Source: Mobula hypostoma (Eukaryota). Taken from it: a stretch of 64,000 nucleotides of DNA. Positions 12,823 through 54,797 of this stretch are shown here, piece by piece. The position numbers and the translations under genes are program-made. The stretch spans positions 36,520,001 to 36,584,000 of the forward strand of contig NC_086108.1 in NCBI RefSeq assembly GCF_963921235.1, written 5' to 3'. The first letter of the stretch is position 1. Each line of letters starts with the position of its first letter. The notes below the pieces were generated by a model. It saw only the letters and a program-made list of their open reading frames with translations. It made no database searches and had not been told where the DNA came from.

Positions 12823-12872
12823 AAATTTAGTCATGTCCTTATGACGTTGAGATAACTTGCCAACCCTTCCTG

Positions 12873-16620: not shown

Positions 16621-16787
16621 CCCCAGAGATACCAGGCCGTTCCCTCACTGGGTCTCCTCTGGGTCATCCCAACGACTCTCCCTGCTTAGGTACCTGGGAG
16701 CTCACTCTCCTTTTGGCGTAACACCTGCTTCCAGCAGCCCTCCACATTGTTCTTCCCCTTGGGGGATCTGCCCCCTCATCAGCTCCA

Positions 16788-17852: not shown

Positions 17853-18740
17853 AGGACTGTATCTTGCTGATGGAGTCCTCCCGCACCTCCGCCGCATCCT
17901 CCTCTTCCTGTAACTCTCTGATCAGCTCAACAAAAGATGGAGGGGCGCGTCTTACGAGACTGTCGGAGACCCCAAGCAATCAGATCATGGGACTAGACGC
18001 CCCTAGCTATCTTAACTGATCCACCTCAGCTGGCGGAATGACCCCTCTGCGCTACAAGCAATTTAGCTGCCTCTCTAGCCGAAAAATAAAAGCAGAAAGC
18101 TTCTCCCCCTTCTCCTGAAGCATGTTCTGAAACCCCACCATGAGCTCCAGTGGGCTTCCTATTGGGTCAAAAGCATTGTCCAATGCTTGGCGATAATTGA
18201 CAGCTGTTGCTACGGGATACCGCAACCTGACAGCTCTCACAACGTCTGCGGCCCGCCCACTCAAACTTTCAACCAATTTCTGCCACTTTACGTTATCAGA
18301 GCATTGCCACTCATCTAGCAACTGAGAGGTCTGCTCCACCCAAGTCTCATACTCCCCCTCCCCTTTAGGGGTGGGCATTATTCCAGAGAATAGGTGGAGC
18401 CTATTTGAATCTGATTTTTCCATTTCTTCGCCAGAGAAGTAAGGGCGGATACTAACTCAGAATTCTCACCCTTCACCAGGGGACGTGGACTAATTAGACA
18501 TTCCAAATCTGACTACTCTTTCCCCTCCCTTCTCAGAAATGAGAGAACCCTGTCTTTGAAATCTCCGCCCCCAGCTTCCACTACCTCAGTGCTGGTCTGC
18601 ATTAAAACAAGAGCTGCGCTGGCCATTTTATCAAACCTCCGCCCACGATCACAACTTTAACAGCAGTTAACAGTGGAATTAACAATTCATCCGGAGTACA
18701 AATATCTGCCCCACTGTTTCATTGCTCAGGGTAATCACAC
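17853..18740 (-). pseudogene. Gypsy Gag, PNMA/Ma-like capsid
   Basis: RLHLFSGIMPTPKGEGEYETWVEQ..WQCSDNVK.QKLVESLSGRAADVV..QEKGEKLSAFIFRLE; C-terminal part continues at about 16620-16787. Confidence 0.88.
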
Positions 18741-18757
18741 AGCATCGAATGGAATCA

Positions 18758-18775
18758 GTCCCAGATGAGCCCCCA
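18758..18775 (-). promoter_or_regulatory. Primer-binding site, tRNA-Pro
   Basis: TGGGGGCTCATCTGGGAC, 15/18 match to the canonical Pro PBS TGGGGGCTCGTCCGGGAT, 4 nt inside the 5' LTR end. Confidence 0.85.
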
Positions 18776-18779
18776 CAAT

Positions 18780-21700: not shown

Positions 21701-23480
21701 TCCATTCCTGCCCTGGTGCCAGTCAAGTCTCTGTAATGGCCACTGCATCATAATTCCATGTATGTATCCAAGCTCTCAGTTCACCACCTTTGTTCCTGAT
21801 GCTTCTTGCATTGAGGTACACACACCTCAGCCTTTCTACCTTACTACTTTTACACTGTTTATTCTGCTTCTCTTTCCTCAACGCCTCTCTATATGTTAGA
21901 TCTGGCTTTACTCCATGCACTTCTTTCACTGCTCTATCATTCCGGGTCCCATCCCCCTTGCAAATTAGTTTAAACCCTCCCGAACCATGCTAGCAAACCT
22001 ACCTGCAAGGATATTGCTCCCCCTCGAGTTCAGGTGCACCCCATCCAATCTGTACAGGTCCCCCCTTTCCCAGAAGAGATCCCAATGATCCAAAAATCTA
22101 AAACCCTGCTCCCTGCACCAACTCCTCAGCCACGCATTCAACTGCCATCTCCTCCAATTCTTACAATCACTGTCACGTAGCACTGGCAGCAATCCTGAGA
22201 ACGCCACCCTTGAGTCCTGTTCTTTAGCCTTTTGCCTAGTTCCTGAAACTCACACTTCAGGACCTCATCCCTCTTCCTGCCTATGTTGTTGGTACCAACA
22301 TGTATCATGACTTCTGGTTGCTTTCCCTCTCGTACCAGGATGTTGTGCACCCGGTCAGAGACACCTTGGACCCTGGCACCCGGGAGGCAACAAACCATGC
22401 GGGTGTCCTTCTCACGTCCACGAAACCTCCTGTCTGCTCCCCTGACTATGAAGTCTCCAATGACGACAGCTCTCCTCTTCTCCGTCCCACCCTTCAGCAC
22501 CACCGGGTCAGACTCAGTGCAGGAGGCCCTGCCACCGTGGCTCACACCTGGTCGGCCGTCCCTGCCAACAGTATCCAGGATGGTAAACTTATTATTCAGG
22601 GTATGGCTACAGGTGTACTCTGCACTACCTGTCTGCTCTCCTTCACTTTCCCCCCTCTGACTGTCACCCAACGACCTGCTTCCGACAGCCTAGGTGTGAC
22701 TACCTCCCTGTAGCTCTCATCTATGACTGCCTCATTCTCCCTTATGAGTCGAAGGTCATCCAGCTGCTGCTCCAGATTCATTACATGGTCTTCCAGATCG
22801 CCCAGCCGTATGCACTTCTGGCAGATGTGACTCTGCGGGAGAGGGGTGTTCCCCCAAGACTGCCACATCTCACATGAGAGGCACATCACCGTCTCAGGAG
22901 GCATTGTAAGGACTAACTGCGAGCAAGCTTGTCCTCCGCCTCTTCCCGTCAAAGCCTCTCTAGTCAAAGCCTCAAAACTCCACTCCTTCACTGGCTCACT
23001 CACTCACTGGCCGCTTTCCACAGGCCGCTCCGCTTGAGCTACCCCTCCATTTATCTGTTTGAGCTTTTCAAAATGCTTGGTCACCTGACCTCGATTGCCC
23101 AATCAGCTGCTTTCTGCTGAGTCTGAGCTATTCAAATCTAAAGAAAATGAAAAAAAAGAAAAAGGACCCAATCTTATGAAACAGTCTATTGCACAATGTT
23201 GGAGCTCACTGATAAGCTGGTTGTTTACCATCGACCTCCTCCGATTGTCGCTGTCCTTTGGATCCTTGCTCCGAGTCCACCCTGTCCAGTGGTCTACCAA
23301 CTCTCTCCATTTGCGTCTTCTCTCCTCATCTCTCCCCAGCCAAAGACCGCGAAAATCTCTCTTCCAGACTCTCAAGAAAGAACAACAGCATTCCAAACCC
23401 TGTTATCTCTAGTCATAAACCAAATATTGCTGCTACAGAGAATCCATTACATTATCAGTGAAACCTTACAGCATGATACA
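18780..23480 (-). repeat. Gypsy 5' LTR, split by a CR1 (18780-18978 and 23139-23480)
   Basis: The two halves rejoin to match 12303-12809 across ggttagtaaa|gaaaatgaa. Confidence 0.92.
18979..23138 (-). mobile_element. Full-length CR1 LINE (5' UTR, ORF1 zinc finger/coiled coil/SGNH esterase, ORF2 EN+RT), disrupted
   Basis: ORF1 CLSCEMW..CQKC, VIGDFIVRG, CLPGARV, HVGTNNIG, DGVHLN; ORF2 NARS, GDFN, KFADD; (TTCTATG)n tail; possible TAAA TSD. Confidence 0.95.
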
Positions 23481-35227: not shown

Positions 35228-37484
35228 CATAGAAACATAGAAAATAGGTGCAGGAGTAGGCCATTCGGCCCTTCGAGCCTGCACCGCCATTTATTATGAT
35301 CATGGCTGATCATCCAACTCAGAACCCCGCCCCAGCCTTCCCTCCATACCCCCTGACCCCCGTAGCCACAAGGGCCATATCTAACTCCCTCTTAAATATA
35401 GCCAATGAACTGGCCTCAACAGTTTCCTGTGGCAGAGAATTCCACAGATTCACCACTCTCTGTGTGAAGAAGTTTTTCCTAATCGCGGTCCTAAAAGGCT
35501 TCCCCTCTATCCTCAAACTGTGACCCCTCGTTCTGGACTTCCCCAACATCGGGAACAATCTTCCAGCATCTAGCCTGTCCAATCCCTTTAGGATCTTATA
35601 CGTTTCAATCAGATCCCCCCTCAATCTTCTAAATTCCAACGAGTACAAGCCCAATTCATCCAGTCTTTCTTCATATGAAAGTCCTGCCATCCCAGGAATC
35701 AATCTGGTGAACCTTCTTTGTACTCCCTCTATGGCAAAGATGTCTTTCCTCAGATTAGGGGACCAAAACTGCACACAATACTCCAGGTGTGGTCTCACCA
35801 AGGCCTTGTACAACTGCAGTAGTACGTCCCTGCTCCTGTACTCGAATCCTCTCACTATAAATGCCAGCATACCATTTGCCTTTTTCACCGCCTGCTGTAC
35901 CTGCATGCCCACTTTCAATGACTGGTGTATAACGACACCCAGGTCTCGTTGCACCTCCCCTTTTCCTAATCGGCCACCATTCAGATAATAATCTGTTTTC
36001 CTATTTTTGCCACCAAAGTGGATAACTTCACATTTATCCACATTAAATTGCATCTGCCATGAGTTTGCCCACTCACCCAACCTATCCAAGTCACCCTGCA
36101 TCCTCTTAGCATCCTCCTCACTGCTAACACTGCCACCCAGCTTCGTGTCATCCGCAAACTTGGAGATGCTGCATTTAATTCCCTCATCCAATTCATTAAT
36201 ATATATTGTAAACAACTGGGGTCCCAGCACTAAGCCTTGCGGTACCCCACTAGTCACCGCCTGCCATTCTGAAAAGGTCCCGTTTATTCCCACTCTTTGC
36301 TTCCTGTCTGCTAACCAATTCTCCACCCACACCAATACCTTACCCCCAATACCGTGTGCTTTAAGTTTGCACACTAATCTCCTGTGTGGGACCTTGTCAA
36401 AAGCCTTTTGAAAATCCAAATATACCACATCCACTGGTTCTCCCCTATCCACTCTACTAGTTACATCCTCAAAAAATTCTATGAGATTCGTCAGACATGA
36501 TTTTCCTTTCACAAATCCATGCTGACTTTGTCCGATCATTTCACCGCTTTCCAAATGTGCTGTTATCACATCCTTGATAACTGACTCCAGCACAGTTTCC
36601 CCACCACCGACGTTAGGCTAACCAGTCTATAATTCCCCGGTTTCTCTCTCCCTCCTTTTTTAAAAAGTGGGGTTACATTAGCCACCCTCCAATCCTCAGG
36701 AACTAGTCCAGAATCTAACGAGTTTTGAAAAATTATCACTAATGCATCCACTATTTCTTGGGCTACTTCTTTAAGCACTCTAGGATGCAGACCATCTGGC
36801 CCTGGGGATTTATCTGCCTTCAATCCCTTCAATTTACCTAACACCACTTCCCTACTAACATGTATTTCGCTCAGTTCCTCCATCTCACTGGACCCTCTGT
36901 CCCTTACTATTTCTGGAAGATTATTTATGTCCTCCTTAGTGAAGACAGAACCAAAGTAATTATTCAATTGGTCTGCCATGTCCTTGCTCCCCATAATCAA
37001 TTCACCTGTTTCTGTCTGCAGGGGACCTACATTTGTCTTTACCAGTCTTTTCCTTTTTACATATCTATAAAAGCTTTTACAGTCCGTTTTTATGTTCCCT
37101 GCCAGTTTTCTCTCATAATCTTTTTTCCCCTTCCTAATTAAGCCCTTTGTCCTCCTCTGCTGAACTCTGAATTTCTCCCAGTCCTCAGGTGAGCCACTTT
37201 CTCTGGCTAATTTGTATGCTTCTTCTTTGGAATTGATACTATCCCTAATTTCTCTTGTCAGCCACGGGTGCACTACCTTCCTTGATTTATTCTTTTGCCA
37301 AACTGGGATGAACAATTGTTGTAGTTCATCCATGCAACCTTTAAATGCTTGCCATTGCATATCCACCGTCAATCCTTTAAGTGTCATTTGCCAGTCTATC
37401 TTAGCTAATTCACGTCTCATACCTTCAAAGTTACCCCTCTTTAAGTTCAGAACCTTTGTTTCTGAATTAACTATGTCACTCTCA
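35228..37484 (-). mobile_element. Young CR1 LINE, 5'-truncated, same subfamily as 8037-11575
   Basis: ORFs 36566-37507 and 35319-36593 nearly identical in protein to the first copy; one 2-bp insertion near 36590. Confidence 0.97.
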
Positions 37485-38239
37485 TTTACGAATGGACATA
37501 TGTACATATAATTAAAAATTATTACTTGACACTCAGTGACAATTTTAATAAATGCTGTATTTTTTTCTTGGCTTTAAAATTACATGATATAAAATGTTTC
37601 TTCCAAAATTAGAAACCTTACTTCCATGGATTTAAAAAAATCAGTCCACTTCCATGTAACTGATTATATATATTTCACATTTTCTGTGATGAGTGCGATC
37701 TAAAGTAAAGTCTTACTTTGGTTATACAATTTATGATGTTTTTAATTTACACTGCCAGCTTCCCTGTACACTTATGATTAGGAATTTAATTTGTATACAG
37801 CTAGCCTCTTTGTCATTAAATAGCATTTTCATTTGCATGTAGGTCAATGTAGCTTATGGGTGTTATGAGTCACAGGTCATGGGCTGGACCCAAATCAGCT
37901 TGTCCTAATGATTGCTATTCTATGTATGATATACATAAATTAGGACAGAAAAATTGTGAAATTGATAAATATGCTGATCTATTTTTTAAAAAGCCTGGAG
38001 AGGCATCAGTAGGAATGAAAATGATCTTGCAAAGTAGTCGCACGACAAAATACATTGCAATTTAATTTGAGTTAGATACACAGAATGTGCTCTATCAGTG
38101 TAACAAATAGGATGTTCTGTCAATGTTTTGATACCAGAAGTATCTCCTTTAGTGTGGTATCTCCTCTGTGTTGTAGGGGAAAAGAATAGTGAGGGTTAGT
38201 AGCCAGTAAATAAGGATATGGATTGTACTACTGTGGTAA

Positions 38240-38482
38240 TGGGGAGCTGCAGACAAAGCCGAGAGGTAGGGACATTGAATGCAGCAGTGATGGCGGGTGC
38301 CTTGCAGCATCTGGTCCATAGCCTCCTGCCAGTGCGGATGCAGAAGCTACTCCAAAAATAAGCCTATTGTAATGATAAAGCCCTTTGTGAGTGCTTGAGG
38401 TGAGAAACACTTCTTCCATCCCCATCTGTAGATAGGCTTCTTTGCTGAGGTGTTTCCCACCACAAAGGTTTGCAAAGAGCAT
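38240..38482 (-). pseudogene. Isolated Gypsy RT fragment of a different family
   Basis: LFANLCGGKHLSK.EAYLQM..LTSSTHKGLYHYNRLIFGVASA. Confidence 0.75.
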
Positions 38483-38610
38483 GCACCTACTGTTCTAATA
38501 GAAAACCAGATTTACTCTTAGACCCGTTGATAATCATTTTACTCTGTAATCTGGATTTAGTTGGTTACTTAATTAAGTCTTAAGTCTTCCTGTAGCCACC
38601 ATTCTGTTAT
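38483..38610 (+). repeat. Putative ERV 5' LTR remnant
   Basis: tgcacctactgttctaatagaaaac..tttactctgtaatc..ttacttaattaagtc..ctgtagccaccattctgt matches 52309-52426. Confidence 0.65.
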
Positions 38611-38614
38611 TAGG

Positions 38615-38738
38615 CTAAAGAAATTGCTCCTCATCTCCATTCTAAGAGGACATCCCTCTATTCTGAGATTGTGTCCTCTGGTCTTAGACTCTCCCACCAT
38701 AGGAAACATCCTCTCTATCAAGGCCTTTCACTATTCAG
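38615..38738 (-). mobile_element. Short CR1 fragment in the ERV 5' region
   Basis: Reverse complement of RMFPMVGESKTRGHNLRIEGCP. Confidence 0.8.
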
Positions 38739-38759
38739 TCGGGTTCAGCCATGTCCCCT

Positions 38760-39400
38760 GGCGCCTCAGTTTTAACTGGCCAATGAGGGCAGAAGTGGAG
38801 AATGTGCAGCATAGTGGCAGGTGTAAGATGGGACAGACAAGTTGATGCTGAATATTTTAGGTGCAGACAAAGAGAGGATCCAGTCTGTGATTGTAAGGAC
38901 AGGGGAGAAGGCCAAGTTAGGTTCAGATGCTGTGAGAAAACGGTATACTCGGGACAAAAGTTGGTCGAAAGGTGGAGAGGAAGCAAGACAAGGACTGTGG
39001 ACACAGCAAGCTGAGGATCGCGACTTTGCTCCAAGAGGCAGTGTAGCAGGAGCTGTTCTCCAGATCTTCGCAGAAGAGTTAGAACAACTCTGGATGAAAT
39101 GACTAGCAACAGCCCTCAGTGACATTGGTAGGTACCCCAGAATGTTTGTCAATGCGCTGTTACGGGGCTGGCAGTACACTATGTTAGCAGATACCGGGGC
39201 TCAGTATTGATAACAAATCTCGACTTACCCATCACAAGTAAAACTACAATGGTGGTGAGGGCAGGACAAGGATCCATAACGTGAATCTGTCCCAACGTAG
39301 ATCATCGACACGAGTCCTACTGTACCTACCTGGGTTTGCTACATATGTGAATTCCTGGGGATAGATCTGTTGTAACAGCTGGGGTCTGTAAGGGAAATTA
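38760..39400 (+). pseudogene. ERV gag C-terminus, UGA-CUAG junction and aspartic protease
   Basis: ORF 38842-39102 ends TGA; the same frame continues CTA GCA..PRMFVNALLRGWQYTMLADTGAQY; FLGIDL-like remnant near 39350. Confidence 0.8.
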
Positions 39401-39589
39401 CTTGGGGAGTAAAGACTCATTCTTGGTGACAGAAGGGGAATGGCGATGATTTATACATACATGTATATCAGGTGTCACAAACTTAAAGGGCAAACGGGCA
39501 GTGGTGGGAGTGTGAGGTATTGTTGCCAAAATATATCCCTGGGTGTTGGCTCTTATAAACAAGTCTGTGGACTTGCTGAGGTGACATCC

Positions 39590-40280
39590 ATTCAGATGTC
39601 CATCACACCCACCCCACAGACAGTGCTCCATTAAACTCAAAGCAGAGGCTGCAGTGGTAAAAATAGTTACAGAACTACAGTAACAAGGAGTGGTCTGGCC
39701 AGCCCTTTCACATATGAATTACCTGATCTGGCTGGTACATAAACGAGATGGGTCCTACTGATCATATACCTCCCTGAACAAATACGCCACCCAGGGAGTA
39801 TCCTACAGTGCCAAGCCCATCTATCATTTCCAATGGCCTGAGGCTGGAACAGGATACTTTTACTGTCTTAGATATTGTAAATATTATAAATTCCAATACA
39901 TCCTGCTACGCAGGATGTTAGCTTTTACCGTCCATGGACAGCTATTTACTTGGGTAAAGTTGCCCTTAGGGTTTCCTTAACAGTCCTGCTATTTCCATCA
40001 ATGTTTGGCTAAAGTCATTGCTTGTGTTCCCTGGGAAGATACTAGGTGCAGTATTCAGCAATATGTGGATATTCTAATTGCATCTCCGAGAGAGAAAGAG
40101 CACATCCAGGTGGTTTTAAGGACTTTACAAGTTATCGAAAATGCGGGTCTGAAATGCGGTAAACCCTCCAGTGTAGAGTTTGGACAGTCAGAAGTATTGC
40201 ATTTGGAATACAAGATTAGACATGGTGAGAAAGTAATACACAAGGAATGTAAAGAAGGAATTCTTAACCTCTTCTTTTCT
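39590..40280 (+). pseudogene. ERV reverse transcriptase (fingers/palm)
   Basis: MNYLIWLVHKRDGSY, FTVLDIVN, AFTVHGQLFTWVKLPLGF, SPAIFHQ, QQYVD(D lost)ILIAS. Confidence 0.88.
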
Positions 40281-40286
40281 TAATTC

Positions 40287-41129
40287 TTAAGCGGAACAAG
40301 TGCTACACATGCCCTTACACTTCCTCCCTTACCACCATTCAGGGCCCGAAACAGTCTTTCCAGGTGAGGCAACACTTCACCTGTGAGTCAGCAGGGGTGA
40401 TATACTGTGACCGCTGCTCCCAATGTGGCCTTTTATATATTGGCGAGACCCGACGCGCACTGGGAGACCGCTTTGCTGAACACCTAAGCTCTGTCCGCCA
40501 GAGAAAGCAGGATCTCCCAGTGGCCACACATTTTAATTCCACATCCCATTCCCATTCTGACATGTCTATCCACGGCCTCCTCCACTGTAAAGATGAAGCC
40601 ACACTCAGGTTGGAGGAACAACACCTTATATTCCGTCTGGGTAGCCTCCAACCTGATGGCATGAACATCGACTTCTCTAACTTCCGCTAATGCCCCACCT
40701 CCCCCCGGACCCCATCTGTTACTTATTTTTACACACACATTCTTTCTCTCACTCTCCTTTTTCTCCCTCTGTCCCTCTGAATATACCCCTTGCCCATCAT
40801 CTGGGTTCTCCCCCCACCCCCTTGTCTTTCTTCCTGGACCTCCTGTCCCATGATCCTCTCGTATCCCTTTTGCCTATCACCTGTCCAGCTCTTGGCTCCA
40901 TCCCTCCCCCTCCTGTCTTCTCCTATCATTTTGGATCTCCCCCTCCCCCTCCAACTTTCAAATCTCTTACTAATTCTTCCTTCAGTTCGTCCTGACGAAG
41001 GGTCTTGGCCTGAAACGTCGACTGCACCTCTTCTTAGAGATGCTGCCTGGCCTGCTGCGTTCACCAGCAACTTTTATGTGTGTTGCTTGTATTTCCAGCA
41101 TCTGCAGAATTCCTGTTGTTTGCGTTTTT
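40287..41129 (+). mobile_element. Penelope-like fragment A, with an approx. 21-bp TSD
   Basis: GIY-YIG ORF 40364-40690; flanked by aattcttaacctct(t/c)cttttc at 40259-40279 and 41131-41151. Confidence 0.93.
40988..41023 (+). ncRNA. Minimal hammerhead ribozyme
   Basis: gtc-CTGACGA-agg..cct-GAAA-cGTC-gac. Confidence 0.75.
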
Positions 41130-41630
41130 AAATTCTTAACCTCTCCTTTTCATACACATAGAAGGGAATCCATCAGAACTTGGGGCTTCAAAATTCTTTT
41201 GTGGAAAATTACGCAGAGCTTGCTGAATCTCTGCAAGCTCTTGCAAGAGGAGGGAAATGGCAAAGAACAAGTGGAATGAAAGCTGGAGTTAGACCAGGCC
41301 CTTTCGCATCTAAAGCAAACCCTCGCTGCAGCATTGGCTTTGGGCTTGCTGGACATGAGCATCTTTTTTCTGACAACCAAGGGGAGTTTTATACAGCTGT
41401 ACACATCAAGAACATGGTGACAAGTCGCACCCTGTAGCACATTACTCTGTAAAATGGGACCCTGTAGTGGCAGGAATACATCAGTGTATGTGAGCAATAG
41501 ACTGCGCTACTTGGGCGTCAGAACACTCAGAACTGACATTCACAGCCACGAAGCCAGTCATCACTGCAGCCCATCCAGAAGCCTGTTAGTTGCAGGCCAC
41601 AGCCTCAGTTCAGCACAGGGATGAGTAAAA
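41130..41630 (+). pseudogene. ERV RT thumb and tether (repeated from 43429 and 45729)
   Basis: FVENYAELAESLQAL..LDQALSHLKQTLAAALALGLLD; HPVAHYSVKWDPVVAG..C (cf. RPVAYxSxKLDPVAxG). Confidence 0.82.
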
Positions 41631-42358
41631 CTTGCTAAGTAGTGAGCTGTACACCAGCCCGTCCCTCATCTCTGGCTTTCACACCCCAACCTTTTCAATC
41701 TGGCCCTGCGCTTAAATCAGACAGATCTCGGGTTGTTCCTCGTTCTCAGATCTGGGCCCTGTTGCTTTGATATGTTCTTGGGCTGGGCCCCTCCTTGATT
41801 CGACCCACACTAGACCTTTCTAATTCGACCTGGCACTTAAATTAGTAAAACCTTAGCTTATTCCTCCCTCTCAGGGCTGGGCCCTGTCTCCTCAATTCTG
41901 CCGATTCAAATTGCCTCCCATGTCCACTACAGCAGCCAAATATTGGCTTGTTGCCTGCTGTTGGGGCCAGGCCCCACTGTCACAGTTCTGCCTGAGCGTG
42001 CCATGCCTACACTTCCCTGCAGCTTTGAGATTTCAGTTCACACTGCAAAAATGCCAGGTCATGCAGGTGGTTCAAAAGCTTCACTCTGAAAGGGAAGTTA
42101 CAGGTTATTGACTGCAGTGATTATTTCTGAGAAAAAGTGTGATTAATGAAGTAGTTACTAGTTGTTTTTGCTGCTAGCAGGTCTTTCCTGTACTTCAACC
42201 GTATCATCTTAGTCACTCACCTAGAGGCAGGGCAAGTACAGGAGGTGTCTGCCAACAGATGAGCACAATGGAGGCAGTGTTGTTACCTGTTGACAAAGAT
42301 GTACAAATAAGGCAATTTCTGGTTAGACCGGTGTGGTAAACCATATATATATGTTGTA

Positions 42359-43428
42359 TCCTCCCACCACCCCACGAGGAATAGGGTTCCCCTGGTCCTC
42401 ACCTACCACCCCACCAGCCTCCGGGTCCAACATATTATTCTCCGTAACTTCCGCCACCTCCAACGGGATCCCACCACTAAGCACATCTTTCCCTCCCCAC
42501 CTCTCTCTGCATTCTGCAGGGATCGCTCCCTACACAACTCCCTTGTCCATTCGTCCCCCCCATCCCTCCCCACTGATCTCCCTCCTGGCACTTATCCGTG
42601 TAAGCGGAACAAGTGCTACACATGCCCTTACACTTCTTCCCTTACCACCATTCAGGGCCCCAAACAGTCCTTCCAGGTGAGGCATCACTTCACCTGTGAG
42701 TCGACTGGGGTGATATACTGCATCCGGTGCTCCCGATGTGGCCTTTTATATATTGGTGAGACCCGACGCAGACTGGGAGACCGCTTTGCTGAACATCTAC
42801 GCTCTGTCTGCCAGAGAAAGCAGGATCTCCCAGTGGCCACACATTTTAATTCCACATCCCATTCCCATTCTGACATGTCTATCCACGGCCTCCTCTACTG
42901 TAAAGATGAAGCCACACTCAGGTTGGAGGAACAACACCTTATATTCCGTCTGGGTAGCCTCCAACCTGATGGCATGAACATCGACTTCTCTAACTTCCGC
43001 TAATGCCCCACCTCCCCCTCGGACCCCATCTGTTACTTATTTTTATACACACATTCTTTCTCTCACTTTCCTTTTTCTCCCTCTGTCCCTCTGAATATAC
43101 CCCTTGCCCATCCTCTGGGTCCCCCCGCCGTCTTTCTTCCCGGACCTCCTGTCCCATGATCCTCTCATATCCCTTTTGCCAATCACCTGTCCAGCTCTTG
43201 GCTCCATCCCTCCCCCTCCTGTCTTCATTTTGGATCTCCCCCTCCCCCTCCAACTTTCAAATCTCTTACTAACTCTTCCTTCAGTTAGTCCTGACGAAGG
43301 GTCTTGGCCTGAAACGTCGACTGTACCTCTTCCTAGATATGCTGCCTGGCCTGCTGCGTTCACCAGCAACTTTTATGTGTGTTGCTTGTATTTCCAGCAT
43401 CTGCAGAATTCCTGTTGTTTGCGTTTTT
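42359..43428 (+). mobile_element. Penelope-like fragment B1 (chimeric)
   Basis: GIY-YIG ORF 42677-43003; 5' part like copy C, 3' part like copy A. Confidence 0.93.
43287..43322 (+). ncRNA. Minimal hammerhead ribozyme
   Basis: agtc-CTGACGA-agg..cct-GAAA-cGTC-gact. Confidence 0.78.
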
Positions 43429-44658
43429 AAATTCTTAACCTCTCCTTTTCATACACATAGAAGGGAATCCATCAGAACTTGGGGCTTCAAAATTCTTTTG
43501 TGGAAAATTACGCAGAGCTTGCTGAATCTCTGCAAGCTCTTGCAAGAGGAGGGAAATGGCAAAGAACAAGTGGAATGAAAGCTGGAGTTAGACCAGGCCC
43601 TTTCGCATCTAAAGCAAACCCTCGCTGCAGCATTGGCTTTGGGCTTGCTAGACGTGAGCATCTTTTTTTCTGACAACCAAGGGGAGTTTTATACAGCTGT
43701 ACACATCAAGGACATGGTGACAAGTCGCAGCCTGTAGCACATTACTCTGTAAAATGGGACCCTGTAGTGGCAGGAATACATCAGTGTATGTGAGCAATAG
43801 ACTGCGCTACTTGGGCGTCAGAACACTCAGAACTGACATTCACAGCCACGAAGCCAGTCATCACTGCAGCCCATCCAGAAGCCTGTTAGTTGCAGGCCAC
43901 AGCCTCAGTTCAGCACAGGGATGAGTAAAACTTGCTAAGTAGTGAGCTGGACACCAGCCCGTCCCTCATCTCTGGCTTTCACACCCCAACCTTTTCAATC
44001 TGGCCCTGCGCTTAAATCAGACAGATCTCGGGTTGTTCCTCGTTCTCAGATCTGGGCCCTGTTGCTTTGATATGTTCTTGGGCTGGGCCCCTCCTTGATT
44101 CGACCCACACTAGACCTTTCTAATTCGACCTGGCACTTAAATTAGTCAAACCTTAGCTTATTCCTCCCTCTCAGGGCTGGGCCCTGTCTCCTCAATTCTG
44201 CCGATTCAAATTGCCTCCCATGTCCACTACAGCAGCCAAATATTGGCTTGTTGCCTGCTGTTGGGGCCAAGCCCCACTGTCACAGTTCTGCCTGAGCGTG
44301 CCATGCCTACACTTCCCTGCAGCTTTGAGATTTCAGTTCACACTGCAAAAATGCCAGGTCATGCAGGTGGTTCAAAAGCTTCACTCTGAAAGGGAAGTTA
44401 CAGGTTATTGACTGCAGTGATTATTTCTGAGAAAAAGTGTGATTAATGAAGTAGTTACTAGTTGTTTTTGCTGCTAGCAGGTCTTTCCTGTACTTCAACC
44501 GTATCATCTTAGTCACTCACCTAGAGGCAGGGCAAGTACAGGAGGTGTCTGCCAACAGATGAGCACAATGGAGGCAGTGTTGTTACCTGTTGACAAAGAT
44601 GTACAAATAAGGCAATTTCTGGTTAGACCGGTGTGGTAAACCATATATATATGTTGTA

Positions 44659-45728
44659 TCCTCCCACCACCCCACTAGGAATAGGGTTCCCCTGGTCCTC
44701 ACCTACCACCCCACCAGCCTCCGGGTCCAACATATTATTCTCCGTAACTTCCGCCACCTCCAACGGGATCCCACCACTAAGCACATCTTTCCCTCCCCAC
44801 CTCTCTCTGCATTCTGCAGGGATCGCTCCCTACACAACTCCCTTGTCCATTCGTCCCCCCCATCCCTCCCCACTGATCTCCCTCCTGGCACTTATCCGTG
44901 TAAGCGGAACAAGTGCTACACATGCCCTTACACTTCTTCCCTTACCACCATTCAGGGCCCCAAACAGTCCTTCCAGGTGAGGCATCACTTCACCTGTGAG
45001 TCGACTGGGGTGATATACTGCATCCGGTGCTCCCGATGTGGCCTTTTATATATTGGTGAGACCCGACGCAGACTGGGAGACCGCTTTGCTGAACATCTAC
45101 GCTCTGTCTGCCAGAGAAAGCAGGATCTCCCAGTGGCCACACATTTTAATTCCACATCCCATTCCCATTCTGACATGTCTATCCACGGCCTCCTCTACTG
45201 TAAAGATGAAGCCACACTCAGGTTGGAGGAACAACACCTTATATTCCGTCTGGGTAGCCTCCAACCTGATGGCATGAACATCGACTTCTCTAACTTCCGC
45301 TAATGCCCCACCTCCCCCTCGGACCCCATTTGTTACTTATTTTTATACACACATTCTTTCTCTCACTTTCCTTTTTCTCCCTCTGTCCCTCTGAATATAC
45401 CCCTTGCCCATCCTCTGGGTCCCCCCCCCGTCTTTCTTCCCGGACCTCCTGTCCCATGATCCTCTCATATCCCTTTTGCCAATCACCTGTCCAGCTCTTG
45501 GCTCCATCCCTCCCCCTCCTGTCTTCATTTTGGATCTCCCCCTCCCCCTCCAACTTTCAAATCTCTTACTAACTCTTCCTTCAGTTAGTCCTGACGAAGG
45601 GTCTTGGCCTGAAACGTCGACTGTACCTCTTCCTAGATATGCTGCCTGGCCTGCTGCGTTCACCAGCAACTTTTATGTGTGTTGCTTGTATTTCCAGCAT
45701 CTGCAGAATTCCTGTTGTTTGCGTTTTT
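44659..45728 (+). mobile_element. Penelope-like fragment B2 (chimeric)
   Basis: GIY-YIG ORF 44977-45303 identical in protein to B1. Confidence 0.93.
45587..45622 (+). ncRNA. Minimal hammerhead ribozyme
   Basis: Identical to 43287-43322. Confidence 0.78.
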
Positions 45729-46958
45729 AAATTCTTAACCTCTCCTTTTCATACACATAGAAGGGAATCCATCAGAACTTCGGGCTTCAAAATTCTTTTG
45801 TGGAAAATTACGCAGAGCTTGCTGAATCTCTGCAAGCTCTTGCAAGAGGAGGGAAATGGCAAAGAACAAGTGGAATGAAAGCTGGAGTTAGACCAGGCCC
45901 TTTCGCATCTAAAGCAAACCCTCGCTGCAGCATTGGCTTTGGGCTTGCTAGATGTGAGCATCTTTTTTTCTGACAACCAAGGGGAGTTTTATACAGCTGT
46001 ACACATCAAGGACATGGTGACAAGTCGCAGCCTGTAGCACATTACTCTGTAAAATGGGACCCTGTAGTGGCAGGAATACATCAGTGTATGTGAGCAATAG
46101 ACTGCGCTACTTGGGCGTCAGAACACTCAGAACTGACATTCACAGCCACGAAGCCAGTCATCACTGCAGCCCATCCAGAAGCCTGTTAGTTGCAGGCCAC
46201 AGCCTCAGTTCAGCACAGGGATGAGTAAAACTTGCTAAGTAGTGAGCTGGACACCAGCCCGTCCCTCATCTCTGGCTTTCACACCCCAACCTTTTCAATC
46301 TGGCCCTGCGCTTAAATCAGACAGATCTCGGGTTGTTCCTCGTTCTCAGATCTGGGCCCTGTTGCTTTGATATGTTCTTGGGCTGGGCCCCTCCTTGATT
46401 CGACCCACACTAGACCTTTCTAATTCGACCTGGCACTTAAATTAGTCAAACCTTAGCTTATTCCTCCCTCTCAGGGCTGGGCCCTGTCTCCTCAATTCTG
46501 CCGATTCAAATTGCCTCCCATGTCCACTACAGCAGCCAAATATTGGCTTGTTGCCTGCTGTTGGGGCCAGGCCCCACTGTCACAGTTCTGCCTGAGCGTG
46601 CCATGCCTACACTTCCCTGCAGCTTTGAGATTTCAGTTCACACTGCAAAAATGCCAGGTCATGCAGGTGGTTCAAAAGCTTCACTCTGAAAGGGAAGTTA
46701 CAGGTTATTGACTGCAGTGATTATTTCTGAGAAAAAGTGTGATTAATGAAGTAGTTACTAGTTGTTTTTGCTGCTAGCAGGTCTTTCCTGTACTTCAACC
46801 GTATCATCTTAGTCACTCACCTAGAGGCAGGGCAAGTACAGGAGGTGTCTGCCAACAGATGAGCACAATGGAGGCAGTGTTGTTACCTGTTGACAAAGAT
46901 GTACAAATAAGGCAATTTCTGGTTAGACCGGTGTGGTAAACCATATATATATGTTGTA

Positions 46959-47994
46959 TCCTCCCACCACCCCACTAGGAATAGGGTTCCCCTGGTCCTC
47001 ACCTACCACCCCACCAGCCTCCGGGTCCAACATATTATTCTCCGTAACTTCCGCCACCTCCAACGGGATCCCACCACTAAGCACATCTTTCCCTCCCCAC
47101 CTCTCTCTGCATTCTGCAGGGATCGCTCCCTACGCGACTCCCTTGTCCATTCGTCCCCCCCATCCCTCCCCACTGATCTCCCTCCTGGCACTTATCCGTG
47201 TAAGCGGAACAAGTGCTACACATGCCCTTACACTTCTTCCCTTACCACCATTCAGGGCCCCAAACAGTCCTTCCAGGTGAGGCATCACTTCACCTGTGAG
47301 TCGACTGGGGTGATATACTGCGTCCGGTGCTCCCGATGTGGCCTTTTATATATTGGTGAGACCCGACGCAGACTGGGAGACCGCTTTGCTGAACATCTAC
47401 GCTCTGTCCGCCAGAGAAAGCAGGATCTCCCAGTGGCCACACATTTTAATTCCACATCCCGTTCCCATTCTGACATGTCTATCCACGGCCTCCTCTACTG
47501 TAAAGATGAAGCCACACTCAGGTTGGAGGAACAACACCTTATATTCCGTCTGGGTAGCCTCCAACCTGATGGCATGAACATTGACTTCTCTAACTTCCGC
47601 TAGGCCCCACCTCCCCCTCGTACCCCAGCTGTTACTCCTTTTTATGCACACATTCTTTCTCTCACTCTCCTTTTTCTCCCTCTGTCCCTCTGAATATACC
47701 CCTTGCCCATCCTCTGGGTCACCCCCCCCCGTCTTTCTCCCTAGGCCTCCTGTCCCATGATCCTCTCGTATCCCCTTTTGCCTATCACCTGTCCAGCTCT
47801 CGGCTCTATCCCTCCCCCTCCTGTCTTCTCCTATCATTTTGCATCTCCCCCTCCCCCTCCAGCTTTCAAATCCCTTACTCACTCTTCCTTCAGTTAGTCC
47901 TGACGAAGGGTCTCAGCCTGAAACGTCGACTGCGCCTCTTCCTGGAGATGCTGCCTGGCCTGCTGCATTCACCAGCAACTTTGATGTATGTTGC
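46959..47994 (+). mobile_element. Penelope-like fragment C, with a 13-bp TSD
   Basis: GIY-YIG ORF 47277-47603; tatatatgttgta at 46946-46958 and 47995-48007. Confidence 0.93.
47896..47931 (+). ncRNA. Minimal hammerhead ribozyme
   Basis: agtc-CTGACGA-agg gtctcag cct-GAAA-cGTC-gact. Confidence 0.78.
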
Positions 47995-48214
47995 TATATA
48001 TGTTGTAACTGGGTTACCTGTCTGGACACGCCCCTCTGCTGACTGCTCCTGTGGCTCCCCCCACAGACCCTTGAATAAAGGCAATTGTGCCACTGCTCCT
48101 CCTCTCAGTCCAGGGGCAGATACTCAGCATGGTTGAGGTCACACTTTACTGCTAATAAAAGCCTTTCAGTATTTACTCTACTTCCAGTTTTTTGGAGTAA
48201 TTGATAGTGCATCA

Positions 48215-48745
48215 CCTGGCCAGTTTGATGGCAACAGGATGTATGCCACGTAAGCGCATGGAGCTAAGGCAAAGGCACCTAACCAGTTAGTTACAGGAGA
48301 AACACCCTCATGGTGTTCCTTTTCGTAGATGGGTCTAGGAAGTACCATGATGGTACTCCACGAACGGGATGGGCTGTTGTGGATAAAGGAAGGAACCCAA
48401 TGGCAGGAGAAAAGCTCCCAGGCCACAGGTCAGCACAACTGGCAGAACAAAAGCACTAACAGAGGCTCTTAAATTAGGTAAATGAGTGAGGATGAACATT
48501 TTCACAGACAATAGATTCACATTTGGAGTAGTACGTGATTTCATGGCATCTTGGGAAAGGAGAGGGTATGTGACCTCGTCAGGAGGGTATACATCATGAA
48601 GAAGTGGTGAAGGAGTTAGTTGAAGCAGATAAACTGCCCTGGGAAGCGGGAAGTCATAAAGATTCAGGTGCACAGAAGGGTAGACTACCCTGAGCAAAAG
48701 GGAAACGCCTTTACTGATCAGGCAGCTAAGGCAATTGCAGGAATC
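48215..48745 (+). pseudogene. ERV RNase H
   Basis: LFVDGSRKYHDGTPRTGWAVV; SAQLAEQKALTEAL; NIFTDNRFTFGVVRDF..WERRGYVTSSG; GNAFTDQAAK. Confidence 0.9.
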
Positions 48746-48879
48746 TGATCAGTCCCAGTAGATGTAGTGACAATCAGAGAGGAGAAGGAGCAAAATTTAA
48801 AGGTGTTTCAAGAGGGTACATCTTCAGAGGAAAAGCGGATTTGGGTACAGGCATGCGTAGTGAAAAGAGAAGACGGATT

Positions 48880-49843
48880 GTAGTGAGGTAGCCCCAGGGT
48901 GCACCAGACATACATTGTTAAAAATCTACCATAGTTTACCTCATATAGGGCAGGATAAGATAAGGATCCAGCTAGAAAGATGCTGGAGATGGCCGGGATG
49001 GGCAGAGATATTGCTAAATTCTGCCGGCAGTGTAAAATAGGTGTCCAGCGCGACGCAGGAAAAGCCGTTAAAATCCAACTGGGGCACCAGCCATGGCCTA
49101 AAGGTCCATGGGAGAAACTTCAGGGGGACTTCACAGGGCCAGTACCCCAGTCTATGGGTAATCGGAATTGCCTAGTGATCGTTGATCGCTTCACCGGGGG
49201 GTGGAACCATTTCCATGTTGGGATTACTCTGCTGAGAGGGTAGCTCGTGCACTCGGAGGGGGGAGTACCGGCCAGCCTCGACTTGGATCGGGGGCAACTT
49301 TACTGCGAAGGCAATCAAGAGAGCTTGTACATTGTCAGGTGGCAAAGAGAAGTTTCACATTGCATACCAAGAGCACTGGCTTGGTGAGAGAGCAAATCAC
49401 AGCCGAAAGGAGGCCGGGGAAGGCTGGTCTAGGGTCTAACAGCAGTACTGATGAAGTTCCAAACTTGCTCTGCTCAAAGGATACGGTTTACTCCTTTTGG
49501 ATTAATGAGAGGACGCGCTACACAAGTAGCAGAGGGAGGACCAAAGGTAAGGACTGGATTACCCAGTTTGTTCGGGAGTTGGCCATTTGTCAGTGTCATC
49601 TAAAAGGAAAAGTCATTGACAGACAGTGTTTGCAGTACTCGAACCAGAGAATTCCCAAGTGAAGAGGGACCGGGAGGTAAGGTGATGGTTAGAGTTGTAC
49701 CAGCAAAACTGGAACTACAACCCAGATGGACGGGACCGTTTACAGTGATCTTGACTGGAGAAAGATGTGCCCTGGTGGAAACTAAGAAAGGGCCAATGTG
49801 GAAACACTGGTTCACCCTGAAAATGTTCCTTGCGTATGAATGA
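48880..49843 (+). pseudogene. ERV integrase
   Basis: HSLPH..FCRQC; PWEKLQGDFTGP..CLVIVDRFT; LQPRWTGPFTVILT..WKH. Confidence 0.9.
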
Positions 49844-51508
49844 TTTAACCACACAATGGTATTTTCACAGGAAAAGGAAACATGGAACCCAACAAGTTAC
49901 AATCAGAGTAACTTGGATAATTGAGTACGTCAGTCTTTCAGGCTACCTCTTGAGAGCAAGTAAAATGCAGGCTGTAAACCGAGTGAATAACAACGAACGG
50001 CCGGCTGTGGGGAGTAACAATGGTTCCACATGGGAGTCAAAATAGCATGCGGTGCTGTGAAATGGACATTTGAATACTGAACAACGCTTGGGGGACATCC
50101 AGTGGGGAGTGATCATGTGCGAGAGGGGTATCCCATGTTTATATTCATCGTGCTGAGACACAAGACCAACGGATCATTCACACTTAAGTGTGGCAATGAA
50201 ACTTGTATGGTAATGCCACAGGGCTGCTCTGTTGGGGAATTGATCACTGTGGGACCCCCTGTTACCGTAAGAGCATCAACAGTGTAACGAGAACCAGAGG
50301 GACACTGGCGATAAGGGTTAGTAATGGCAGATATGGGCAAAAGGCTTACTCTAGTGTTCTTTACCCTGACTGCTTTGCAACTTCCCTAGTTTTTGTGGAG
50401 ACAGTACGAGTTGTCTTTTCCAACTTTTACACGCAGGTGCTCCCAATAAGGGGTCCACAGACCCTTGGCATAACAAGGGGCATATATCCCTTCTGTATAG
50501 GCAAGTGGCTCATAGTGAGTTAGACCAGAAAGGCAAGAAGGAAAAGGGGCTTCACTAAGTTATTAGGAGCAGGATATTCACTAGGGGCCTCCACATTCAA
50601 TACTTTTGATTTAGGTATTGCAGAAATACAGTAAATACACAAATTATTTTCCTCCATGGAACTCGAAGGGGATCAAAAAACAAAATTGTGGTGACTTGGA
50701 ACAAGCGAGCACAATCGGAAAGCAGGGGCAGAAACAATCCAGTTATTGCAGCCATTAAAGGATATAACTAACAACGATATTGATAGAGTGAACAATAACA
50801 CTTGACACTGTGGTAAAAATGCAGCCTGTACAACATATGATGCCTAGCTCCTGTCTGTAGTCAGAACAAACATTCTGTGTTAGAAGCCACAGAGTTGCGG
50901 ACTGGATATCAGAATAACAGCTGAAAGAATAGTTGGGTAGAGGTGCTCCCGTGTGACACGTTTGAGATCTCACTCTGACTAATCGAAATCTCACTCCCAT
51001 ATGCTGGGAGGCTATGAAAATGAGAGGAGTCCGCTATATGTGGCAGAAGTCCTTCACATTCCCCGACACGGTGACAAATCAGATGTACTCTCTTATGAGA
51101 CTGCATAATGTTGGAAAATGCCATGAGGGAACTTGGATATCTCGAAGCAATTGAGTTACACAAGTCAAAGAGTGGGGTGAACTTGATGCAGTGTCTCCAA
51201 AGGGTGGACCACTGGGCATGTCCAGAGGAGGCTATAGGATGCAACTTGATGGAATGGGTTTTGCTATGTATGATAACTGTTCCCTGTCCTTATCGCCAGT
51301 TAATAATGAAACGTTTTGAAGTATATTTTGCTGAACAACACCTACTGCATCACAACATCCGTGAGAGCATATTAAAAAAAGGTGATTGCAATGCAGTCTG
51401 ACTGGCTTTAATGTGACAATCTGTGATGTCTCAACTGAATTAATGATTGTGGGTCAGAATTTGCTTAAGACATGTGCAGTAGTAACACAGACAAAGGATT
51501 GCACAAGT

Positions 51509-51593
51509 CCTGATGAAGGGTTCCGGCCCGAAGCGTCGACCCATCGTTTCCACGGATGCTGCCTGACCTGCTGAGTTCCTCCAGCGCGTTGTG
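51509..51593 (+). mobile_element. 85-bp Penelope terminal (hammerhead) insertion with a 14-bp TSD
   Basis: aggattgcacaagt at 51495-51508 and 51594-51607; CTGATGA-ggg..ccc-GAAG-cGTC. Confidence 0.88.
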
Positions 51594-51614
51594 AGGATTG
51601 CACAAGTATGTAGC

Positions 51615-51846
51615 CACTGAACTATCACCCATTCCACACTTTATTACCTCACTTCTTAAAAAATATACAGTATTTCTGTTTTGCACGTTTCAATAGATGT
51701 AATAGATTTACTTGTTTATTTATTATTATTTTATTTTATTTATTTTTTTCTCTCTCTGCTAGATTATGTATTGCATTGAACTGCTGCTGGTGCGAAGTTA
51801 ACAAATTTCACATCACACGCCGATGATAATAAACCTGATTCTGACT
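51615..51846 (+). mobile_element. Rex1/Babar-type 3' tail inserted in env
   Basis: Ends acaaatttcacatcac..gataataaacctgattctga, like the tails at about 7830 and 2952. Confidence 0.7.
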
Positions 51847-52308
51847 GGGAAAAAAAATTCTAGGAGTTAAAGAAGTCATTAAAAATGGGATACACTGTCA
51901 AAAATGACAATGGGATCATAAGAATGGAGCTAAGGTGGCTCTAAAAAACTCCTTTTAGGACAGTATTTGGAATTGGGGTTTGAATGTACAAATCCACCCC
52001 TGGATTTGACTTATCTCTCAGCTGATCGTTTTAACGACTGGCATTATTTTAGTGTGCGTACTACAACAGCAGGTAAAGTATTGGCGTTAGGACAATTGTC
52101 ATTTAGAAGGTCAAACAAAGGTACTGTTGAGGATCTAATCTATAGGCCCTATTGGTCTGTGGTAAGGGAAAAAATAAATAGAGGTAGTAACTAGTACGTC
52201 AGTACAGTTGTGGATTGTGCTACTGTGATAACAAGGAACCGCAGACAAATGCTGGAAGTAGAGACGTGACATCCAAGGTTCAGGAGTTTTGTTAATTATT
52301 TTATAGTG

Positions 52309-52426
52309 TGCACCCATTGTTGTAATAGAAAACTGGATTTTCTGTTAGACTTGTGGACAATCACTTTACTCTGTAATCAGGACCTAATCCATTACTTAAT
52401 TAAGTCCTGTAGCCTCCATTCTGTAT
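52309..52426 (+). repeat. Putative ERV 3' LTR remnant
   Basis: Diverged direct repeat of 38483-38610, downstream of env. Confidence 0.65.
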
Positions 52427-52534
52427 TCAAAATGTAATTTTATTGGTAATCCGTATATTCTTATATTTCAAAGACCAAATCCATGTGATCTTTCAATTTG
52501 CTCAGACTACTATTTCAAGATGTAATTTTTTTCA

Positions 52535-53487
52535 TTTCAGAATAATTTCATCAGTGATGAAATTGGCATATAAGACGGAGATTGAAAGTTTGGCTGAGTG
52601 GTGGCACACCAGCAACTTCCTAATCAAGGTCAGCAAGACCAAAGAACTAATTATTGACTTCAGGAGGAAAAAGAACAGAAGTTCATGAACCAGTCCTCAT
52701 CAGTGGATCGGAGGTGGAGCGAGTTGGTAACTTTAAATTCCTTGGCGTTACCATATCAGAGGATCTGTCCTGGGACCATCCTGAGTGCCATCACAAAGAA
52801 GGCACGACAACACCTCTACTTTCTTCGAAGTTTCACAGATTCAGCACGTCATCTAAAACTTTGACTAACTTCTATAGATGCACAATGGAGAGTTCCCTGA
52901 CTGGTTGCATCATGGGCTGATGTGGAAACACCAAGCCCAGAAACAGAAAAGACTTAAACTTAATGGTGGACACTGCCCAGTCTATCAGGCAAAGCCATCC
53001 AAACGATTGAACACATCTACAGTGAGTGCTGCCGTAAAAAAGCAACGCCCATCATCAAGGAATCCCACCATCTCGGCCATGCTCTCTTCTCACTACTGCC
53101 ATCGGAAAGGAGGCACAGGAGTCTCAGCTTACTCACCACCAGATTCAGGAACAGTTATTTCCCTTCAATTAGCAGGTTCCTGAACTTCACTCACCTCAAC
53201 TCTGAACTGATTCCACAATATTCCACAATGCAACATTTTCACTTTCAAGAACTCTGCCACTCATGTTCTCAGTATTATTTATTAGTTATTTACTTTTTTA
53301 TTTGTAGCTTGTCTTCTTTTGCACATCAATTGTTCATCAGTTTTTGTGTGTAGTTTTCCATTGATTTTATTCTATTTCTCTGCTCTACTGTGAAGGTCTG
53401 CAAGAAAATTAATCTCAAGGTAGTACTGTAAACGGCGACATATGCCTACATTGATAATAAATTTACTTTGAACTTGGAACTTTGAAT
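52535..53487 (+). mobile_element. Rex1/Babar-type LINE 3' end
   Basis: VSKTKELIIDFRR, VERVGNFKFLGVTISEDLSW, NFYRCT.ES.LTGCI; aataaa followed by (ACTTTGA)n. Confidence 0.88.
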
Positions 53488-53519
53488 TAATCCTGGCCAA
53501 ATATCTCTGGGCTTTTACT

Positions 53520-54797
53520 CAAGTATATAAAACATCGATGAGGCCTAATTTAGAATATTCTGTGCCGTTTTGCTCAGATACTTACAGGAAATATGTAAAC
53601 AGGTTTGAAAGAGTAGAGAGAAAATTTACAAGGATGGTGCTGGGTCTGGAGGATCTGAGTTATTAAGGAAAGATTGAATAGGTTAGGACTTTATTCCTTA
53701 GAATGTAGGAGGTTGAGAGGAAATTTGACAGAGGGATACAAAATTACAAGGGGTATAAATAGGGTAAATGCAAGCAGGGTTTTTCCACTGAGGTTTGGTG
53801 GGACAACAACCAGAGACCATGTGTTAAGGGGAACATGAAGAGAAACATCCTCACTCAGGGGGGTCATGAGAGTGTGGAATGAGCTGCCAGCACAAGTGGT
53901 GTGTGTGAGCTCGATTAGATTAGATTAGATTAGATTAGATTATGAGGACACTCAGTCCTCATTTATTGTCATTTAGAAATGCATGCATTAAAAAAATGAT
54001 GCAACGTTCCTCCAGAATGATATCACAAGAAAACACAGGACAAAACCAAGACGAAAATTGACAAAACCACATAACTATAACATATAGTTTACAACAATGC
54101 AAAGCTATACCATAATTTGATAAAGAGCAGATCATGGGCATGATAAAAAAAAGTCTCAAAGTCCTGATAGACTCATCATCTCACGCAGGCGGCAGAAGGG
54201 AGAAATTCTCCCTGCCATAAACCTCCAAGCGCCGCCAATTTGCCGATGCAGCACCATTGGAAGCACCCGGCCGCAGCGGACTCTGAGTCCGTCCGAAAAC
54301 TTCAAGCCTCTGACCAGTCCTCCGACACAGCCTCTCTGAGCTCCATCCTCTGCCGAGCACTTCGACCCCGCCCCGGCCACCGAGCAGCAGGCAAAGCCAA
54401 GGACTCAGGGCCTTCTCCTCCGGAGATTCTGGACCACACAGTAGCAGCAGCAGTGAAGCAGGCATTTCAGAAGTTTCACCAGATGTTCCTCCGTGCTCTC
54501 ACGACGGTCTCCATCAAATCAGGATTGTGCACGGCGCCCTACTTGACAAATAACAGACATCACTACCGCAGTGGCCGCTGCGAGCTGCGTCGCGCCACCA
54601 TCTTCTCCTCCCGCCTTGTTCCAACATTTGATTTCAACATTTAAGAGAAGCTTGGATAGGTACATGGATGGTAGGGGTATGGAGGGCTATGGTCCCGGTG
54701 TGGGTCAATGGGAGTAGGCAGTTTAAATGATTTAGCACAGACTAGATGGGCCGAAGGGCCTGTTTCTGTGCTGTACTTTTCCATGATTGTGATTCTA
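53520..54797 (+). mobile_element. CR1 3' fragment split by an insertion (about 53520-53913 and 54630-54797)
   Basis: RPNLEYSVPF..ERVERKFTRM..RVWNELPAQVV | FKRSLDRYMDG plus CR1 3' UTR. Confidence 0.8.
53914..54620 (-). mobile_element. Non-coding retroposon with a (TCTAA)n tail
   Basis: (ATTAG)n at 53914-53942 with minus-strand AATAAA just inside; GC-rich 5' part; interrupts the CR1. Confidence 0.65.

Follow-up and report, generated by a model that had tools for sequence, protein, structure and literature searches.

An old, decayed endogenous retrovirus of probable snakehead retrovirus-like affinity, with a candidate F-type envelope, in Mobula hypostoma

Described systems with which the element reported here can be compared include the snakehead retrovirus (SnRV)-like endogenous retroviruses (ERVs) of clade Huo (PMC6001957, PMC4977317), the lokiretroviruses (PMC7947760), an elephant shark ERV lineage (PMC4422223) and the foamy viruses. 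Lokiretroviruses were found in none of five chondrichthyan genomes (PMC7947760), and the foamy virus Env is structurally related to the F protein of paramyxoviruses and pneumoviruses (PMC11468914). Wang & Han found canonical and lokiretroviral Envs to be without detectable similarity and preferred independent origins (PMC7947760, PMC9040795). We analysed a 64,000-nucleotide stretch of the Mobula hypostoma genome (contig NC_086108.1, positions 36,520,001 to 36,584,000, forward strand; hereafter the window), in which a provirus lies at 38169-52424 on the + strand. This locus is a real, old and dead ERV, one provirus of a true retrovirus, and nothing points to any present function. The locus, now non-coding, probably goes back to one old insertion into the germ line by a canonical retrovirus that belonged to neither class I nor class II; this virus was of SnRV-like grade, nearest to a cyprinid ERV family, and its Env was probably of F type.

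The provirus covers 14,256 bases, or about 6.4 kb without inserts, and reads in the order long terminal repeat (LTR), gag remnant, protease, reverse transcriptase (RT), tether, second RNase H, integrase, env and LTR. A motif scan in three-frame reading located every motif that an earlier note on this DNA had named, collinear and on the + strand. The motifs of the scan lie at 39184 (LADTGA), 39868 (LDIVN), 39960 (LPLGF) and 40059 (QYVD, one Asp absent) in protease and RT; at 41431 (PVAHYS, repeated by tandem duplication at 43731 and 46031) in the tether; at 48322 (FVDGS), 48430 (SAQLAE), 48498 (IFTD) and 48701 (GNAFTD) in the second RNase H; at 49127 (DFTGP) and 49721 (PRWTGPF) in the integrase; and at 50536 (furin-like RRKR) in env. 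We compared the DNA, allowing for frameshifts, with an equal-weight profile of four retroviral lineages, taking the maximum of 20 shuffles as control. RT reached 414 (best shuffle 101), the thumb/tether part 170 (best shuffle 51) and RNase H plus integrase 827 (best shuffle 119), all far above the control. Protease exceeded its best shuffle modestly (54.9 against 45.6), and the tether end did no better than chance (31.2 against 31.0). This reading of Pol contained 34 frame changes and 7 stops. Pfam returned three weak matches on 12 single frames (RVT_1, 4.7e-4; MLVIN_C, 0.0053; RNase_H, 0.044), Rfam returned none, and no tRNA was found. The collinear domains between matching LTRs bear out the note's claim of one old provirus of a true retrovirus; its rule that a tether plus a second RNase H marks true retroviruses was too strong, since Odin and plant Athila/Tat elements share both (PMC9040795). 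The features are as follows.

38169..38607, + strand: 5' LTR; two blocks matching the 3' LTR and separated by about 165 additional bases; outer limit uncertain
38610..38718, - strand: piece of a LINE that entered the leader later; 80% complementarity to 1699-1807, a segment within a LINE-type open reading frame (ORF)
38884..39102, + strand: remnant upstream of protease, probably the gag end, judged from position only
39103..39560, + strand: protease, broken (motif and profile score)
39566..40271, + strand: reverse transcriptase, broken by 12 frame changes and 2 stops (profile score, Pfam, PDB matches, trees)
40280..41131, + strand: nested fragment of Penelope type that splits the RT thumb; its target duplication of 20 bp has 1 mismatch
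41132..41600, + strand: RT thumb and tether (degenerate first RNase H) of canonical retroviral type (profile score, tblastn matches)
41620..42150, strand unassigned: stretch of about 530 bp inside the tether, probably an insert
42196..42309, + strand: probable tether end (weak; chance-level score)
42332..48214, + strand: nested high-copy TG...CA element interrupted by another Penelope copy, together with two additional tandem units of 2.3 kb
48319..48750, + strand: second (catalytic-type) RNase H, broken (Pfam, tblastn, motifs)
48760..49843, + strand: integrase with MLV-like C-terminal domain, broken (Pfam, homologue and PDB matches, motifs)
49960..52100, + strand: env, broken; N-terminal part like protein P0001, RRKR, two lokiretrovirus-type motifs, anchor at about 52000-52060
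51509..51604, + strand: short repeat tail nested in env, with a 13-bp target duplication
51659..51843, strand unassigned: second high-copy insert nested in env, ends approximate (high contig depth)
52158..52424, + strand: 3' LTR, matching the 5' LTR; flank junction bridged in a second organism

The flanking direct repeats reported in the earlier note are real (score 141 vs a maximum of 59 in 100 shuffles) and longer than it stated: a second matching block was found (38169-38273 vs 52158-52265, 71%), and the left end was therefore placed at about 38169. Across 220 aligned columns the LTR pair showed 78.6% identity, with a Kimura two-parameter divergence of 0.258 +/- 0.041. No target-site duplication was identified at the provirus ends, and no clear primer-binding site was seen in the leader. 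Most of gag is absent; its remnant, which holds no CCHC motif, ends at an in-frame TGA (39100) that precedes LADTG by 28 codons. An in-frame stop, TAG rather than TGA, also stands at the gag/pol junction of SnRV, of the metagenome contig L113 and of the record labelled as walleye dermal sarcoma virus (WDSV).

We compared positions 47990-54000 with the public contigs of four of the 24 listed runs (organisms A to D). In long pieces the match was exact in organism A, and homologous stretches were present in the three others (B, about 97%; C, 92-95%; D, about 91%). One contig of organism B bridges the 3' LTR and its flank (52353-52660), showing that the insertion is common to B; it is likely also common to C and D, where one contig reaches only about 20 bases inside the shared insert. 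A contig of organism A covers RNase H, integrase and env (48331-50760) without differences, and a contig of B does so at 97.5% identity; for the 3' half, these contigs refute an origin of the fragments from unrelated insertions. The two LTRs have diverged from each other about three times as far as organisms A and D have. Absolute dating was tried and rejected as rate-limited (59, 129 or 587 million years at rates of 2.2e-9, 1e-9 or 2.2e-10). Short pieces about 87% alike were also observed in all four runs across 48.4-51.4 kb, beside the single-copy contigs, and are thus taken to be other, older copies of the family in low number.

Later inserts account for about 7.9 kb of the 14.3-kb span and hide the provirus: a LINE fragment in the leader, a Penelope piece in the RT thumb, the ~530-bp stretch and the TG...CA element in the tether, and two inserts in env. 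Target duplications restore continuity across two of them. The sister Penelope copy gave a GIY-YIG match (E 6.8e-5). The ~530-bp stretch contains an internal 74-bp repeat at 125-bp spacing and yielded no Rfam match, no Pfam match and no long terminal repeats. The TG...CA element is probably a solo LTR of another family, and contig depth is very high at 47990-48391. The segment that lies between the two Penelope copies occurs in triplicate (40280-48007), with 99.3-99.8% likeness among the units. Each 2.3-kb unit carries a Penelope-type GIY-YIG fragment plus part of the provirus pol, and the extra units repeat the thumb/tether at 43430-44645 and 45730-46945. This triplication looks like a recent unequal crossover between the two same-direction Penelope copies, or an assembly effect.

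To place Pol, one frame of the window was searched against 1.84 billion proteins and yielded 64 relatives. The best named Env match came from the shark Heterodontus francisci, and the repeat content of the DNA is of the kind known from rays and sharks, both in keeping with a cartilaginous-fish host. A second search retrieved full Pol proteins, including those of Pimephales, an Anguilla cluster, Xenopus and Latimeria; word-based homologue searches with the RT frame, and with the shark protein P0012 against longer proteins, found no match, which is weak evidence. Reference retroviruses were taken from viral contigs, and their labels (WDSV, SSSV, gamma, foamy, beta) are our assumption from lengths and motifs; likewise, P0095 and P0101 are taken by us as stand-ins for ERV-L/ERV3. 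The RT tree comprised 39 of 48 rows, and more were left out of later trees. The record L081 is SnRV, its RT agreeing with the lokiretrovirus supplement (PMC7947760). The lokiretroviruses were represented by L118, a lokiretrovirus-type RT/tether fragment observed in a metagenome-collection contig.

By tblastn the cyprinid family ranked first with about 360 bits, and no reference virus scored above 245; the unclassified teleost families P0075/P0172 (Pimephales), P0077 (Anguilla cluster), P0079/P0141 and L108 gave the top Pol scores and were the nearest tree neighbours. The window grouped with the fish ERVs P0075, P0172, P0141, P0079 and P0080 in the RT tree (98/91), paired with P0172 in the RT+tether tree (89/81) and was sister to P0172 in the tree of RNase H plus integrase (96/92), a region in which identity to teleost ERV families reached 42%. 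RT identity was 84/242 to P0172 and 75/243 to SnRV. The node shared by the window, SnRV and class I had a support of 86/90. With L118 added, the lokiretrovirus row was sister to all canonical rows, including the window (96/90 and 98/97). We then applied the approximately unbiased (AU) test to RT+tether (19 rows, 442 columns). A position within Gypsy, which would have spoken against the earlier note, was rejected (p = 0.007), as was a grouping with P0095 and P0101 (p = 0.009). Pairing with SnRV was not rejected (p = 0.115), and the window was sister to SnRV in no free tree. Crocodilian ERV4 has no GPY/F-equivalent after the integrase (PMC4299795), whereas the provirus integrase has an MLVIN_C-like tail, which argues against ERV4 membership. 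Judged on these comparisons, the predicted Pol belongs to a canonical retrovirus that falls in neither class I nor class II but in a loosely defined SnRV-like grade of fish ERVs.

The SnRV-like ERVs share with the provirus a non-class I/II Pol, an in-frame gag/pol stop, an MLV-like integrase tail and a long, non-gamma transmembrane subunit. The surface part of the window Env is shorter than that of SnRV, and the Env shows no significant similarity to it and carries lokiretrovirus-type motifs that SnRV lacks; the accessory ORFs of SnRV were not seen in the decayed window locus. L108 has a gamma-type Env (TLV_coat, 1e-20), unlike the window. CmiERV lineage I of the elephant shark, described as clustering with SnRV and likewise from a cartilaginous-fish host (PMC4422223), has by eye a gamma-type immunosuppressive domain and CX6CC, a P0095-like Pol and an LTR divergence of 0.033, compared with 0.26 in the window. 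With regard to the note's suggestion of an undescribed lineage in this host group, novelty is plausible because this chimaera lineage carries a gamma-type env by eye; the grade to which the provirus appears to belong, that of SnRV-like fish ERVs, was not named there. As side observations, L108 and L113 carry an intact SnRV-grade Pol with a gamma-type Env in metagenome contigs, and the L113 gag contains a captured RNase H-like piece.

We further examined env, which runs from the N-terminal part through RRKR to a hydrophobic anchor near 52000. No immunosuppressive-domain or CX6CC match of the gamma type was found in its three frames. Without inserts, the furin-to-anchor distance is about 393 residues, compared with 355 in SnRV, 386 in WDSV, 385-390 in two foamy viruses and 145-166 in two gamma-type Envs. 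Significant env matches were obtained only with P0012 and P0001 (z 72 and 47). Pairwise frame-aware alignment to ten reference Envs gave z below 2 for all, and BLASTP and hhalign against the SnRV, WDSV and foamy Envs gave nothing significant; hhalign of P0012 against SnRV Env produced a plausible register (E 0.1). The matching part of SnRV Env (L081 7700-9100) resembled Fusion_gly/Baculo_F clusters at 0.92 in an atlas comparison, a likeness for which no paper was found in our literature search; the same comparison gave no usable match for P0012. By eye, Cys/Trp spacing hinting at an Ig-like module was noted at 50030-50430 (matching P0001 and P0030) and in the SnRV Env N-terminus, and Pfam gave no support for such a module in the Env N-terminal part. 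Taken together, the Env is probably of F type.

Seven of eight compared lokiretroviral Envs (8 of 23 published, the eighth truncated; PMC7947760) have the motif Y.LK...NVG.W followed about 30 residues on by NL..C....DIH..CP. The window Env has Y.L....NVG at 51086 and NL..C....DHW.CP at 51180, 94 bases apart, each occurring once in the six frames of the 64 kb. In 200 shuffles the first motif arose 0.055 times per window, and the second motif and the loose pair never arose. Looser forms occur in P0012, and both motifs are absent from 142 ORFs of 34 reference viruses, including SnRV, WDSV and foamy viruses. A scan for lokiretroviral Env sequence gave one match, which did not look Env-like. These motifs suggest a special tie of the window Env to lokiretroviral Env; the lokiretrovirus likeness that the earlier note had placed in Pol lies in Env instead. 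As for the note's view of Pol as compatible with epsilon-, spuma- or lokiretrovirus-like lineages, RT+tether spoke against each of the three (AU values below), and RT alone left the lokiretrovirus and foamy placements standing.

The favoured placement of Pol has to be weighed against three others. A true lokiretrovirus, which would be the first in a cartilaginous fish, would account for the dual RNase H, the Env RxKR site and two collinear Env motifs, and integrase matches named NYNRIN-like, and it survived the AU test on RT alone (p = 0.057); it was largely refuted on RT+tether (p = 0.0009), the RT and tether motifs are of canonical rather than lokiretrovirus type, RT identity to L118 is 69/235 compared with the 84/242 to P0172, and no smc-like gene was seen in the window, so that we find this reading hardly credible. 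It is very unlikely that the provirus is a foamy virus or foamy-like ERV: the best PDB integrase match is prototype foamy virus (E 0.017), RT identity to foamy rows is 73-81/238 (RT-only p = 0.103), the transmembrane subunit has a similar length of about 390 residues and the foamy Env is structurally F-like, but tether identity is 16-24/112, compared with 41-45/113 to fish SnRV-grade rows, RT+tether rejected the placement (p = 0.028), and the tree position differs. The gene layout also differs, with gag, stop and protease in one frame; the pol stop and the furin site are about 230 codons apart, too few for a surface subunit of foamy size (about 575 residues). An early branch of class I (an epsilon-like ERV) with a WDSV-like long Env is improbable, although the tree of RNase H plus integrase set the window, P0172 and P0077 beside class I (93/96), the top PDB RT matches are MLV, the integrase tail is MLVIN_C-like and the WDSV-labelled Env (L015) has a similarly long transmembrane subunit; class I formed a 97-100% clade without the window in every tree, the placement was rejected (p = 0.035), and the window Env had no match to WDSV. 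An assembly artefact, or unrelated fragments lying side by side, is close to negligible: inserts make up more than half of the span and the tandem units are near-identical, but target duplications restore continuity at two inserts, matching LTRs enclose the whole, and the contigs of organisms A and B span RNase H, integrase and env.

Several points weigh against the favoured reading. Foamy viruses and class I are rejected by a modest margin (p 0.03-0.04), and on RT alone the lokiretrovirus and foamy placements both survive. Adding L108 and the lokiretrovirus row lowers the support for the nearest group to 87/77 and 84/81, and the SnRV-like rows do not form one clade, two larger SnRV-containing groupings being rejected (p = 0.017 and 0.016). 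The window sits on a long branch (1.05-1.27), and its row was produced by automatic alignment that allowed for frameshifts; the trees contained no ERV-L, ERV4, Ovex1 or fish foamy-like ERVs, and the lokiretroviruses were a single row. On the Env side, no significant match was found in Pfam, PDB or the ten reference Envs, both AlphaFold models failed (predicted local distance difference test scores of 36 and 28), the SnRV atlas score had low recognition (1539), and the lokiretrovirus motifs were chosen after the window had been seen. With the same Pol, Env could be lineage-specific, its likeness to lokiretroviruses reflecting deep F-type ancestry and being no closer than that of SnRV or WDSV Env. 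The comparison with lokiretroviral Env was not quantitative and P0012 and SnRV Env align in a plausible register, but the motifs are present in the window, more loosely in P0012, and in none of the reference viruses; we regard this alternative as rather unlikely. It is possible, and is offered tentatively, that the provirus is a very old member of an undescribed lineage of canonical retroviruses in cartilaginous fishes, one with an F-type Env that has a specific relationship to lokiretroviral Env.

On the favoured reading of a SnRV-like canonical retrovirus, the living virus would have had the layout LTR-gag-(in-frame stop)-pro-pol-env-LTR, with Pol probably made by stop read-through. Cell entry would probably have relied on a furin-cleaved, F-type class I fusion protein with a lokiretrovirus-like transmembrane subunit of about 390 residues. 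Infection of the germ line may then have been followed by decay, in which most of gag was lost and dozens of breaks and six or more nested inserts accumulated; the recent 2.3-kb triplication would probably have followed by unequal crossover between the two Penelope copies.

Other elements were also observed in the window. The region 12300-18900 on the - strand holds a further, independent element, a decayed Gypsy copy with RT, one RNase H and integrase, and with a Penelope fragment inside; its probable LTR matches are at about 12330-12470 and 18837-18978, and a related segment lies at 23139-23479. At 8144-11623 and 35319-37573 on the - strand are two young LINE copies of CR1 type with long open frames, 97-100% alike in compared blocks. 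Inverted arms of about 135 bp, 87% alike, at 11677-12213 may represent a miniature inverted-repeat transposable element.

No paper describing a canonical Pol paired with a lokiretrovirus-like Env was found in a literature search thin on subscription papers. If true, this pairing would be a counter-example to the view of Wang & Han. A specific tie to lokiretroviral Env, if true, would mean either an exchange of env between lokiretroviruses and canonical retroviruses or a common ancestor of the two that already had an F-type Env, which the gamma-type Env would then have replaced several times within the Pol grade; both options oppose independent origins. The surprise is moderate, since an F-like foamy Env is already known. 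The Pol neighbours carry Envs that are gamma-type (L108, CmiERV lineage I) or apparently F-like (SnRV), and the SnRV-like grade therefore records repeated envelope swaps, which opens to test the question of which Env was ancestral in retroviruses.

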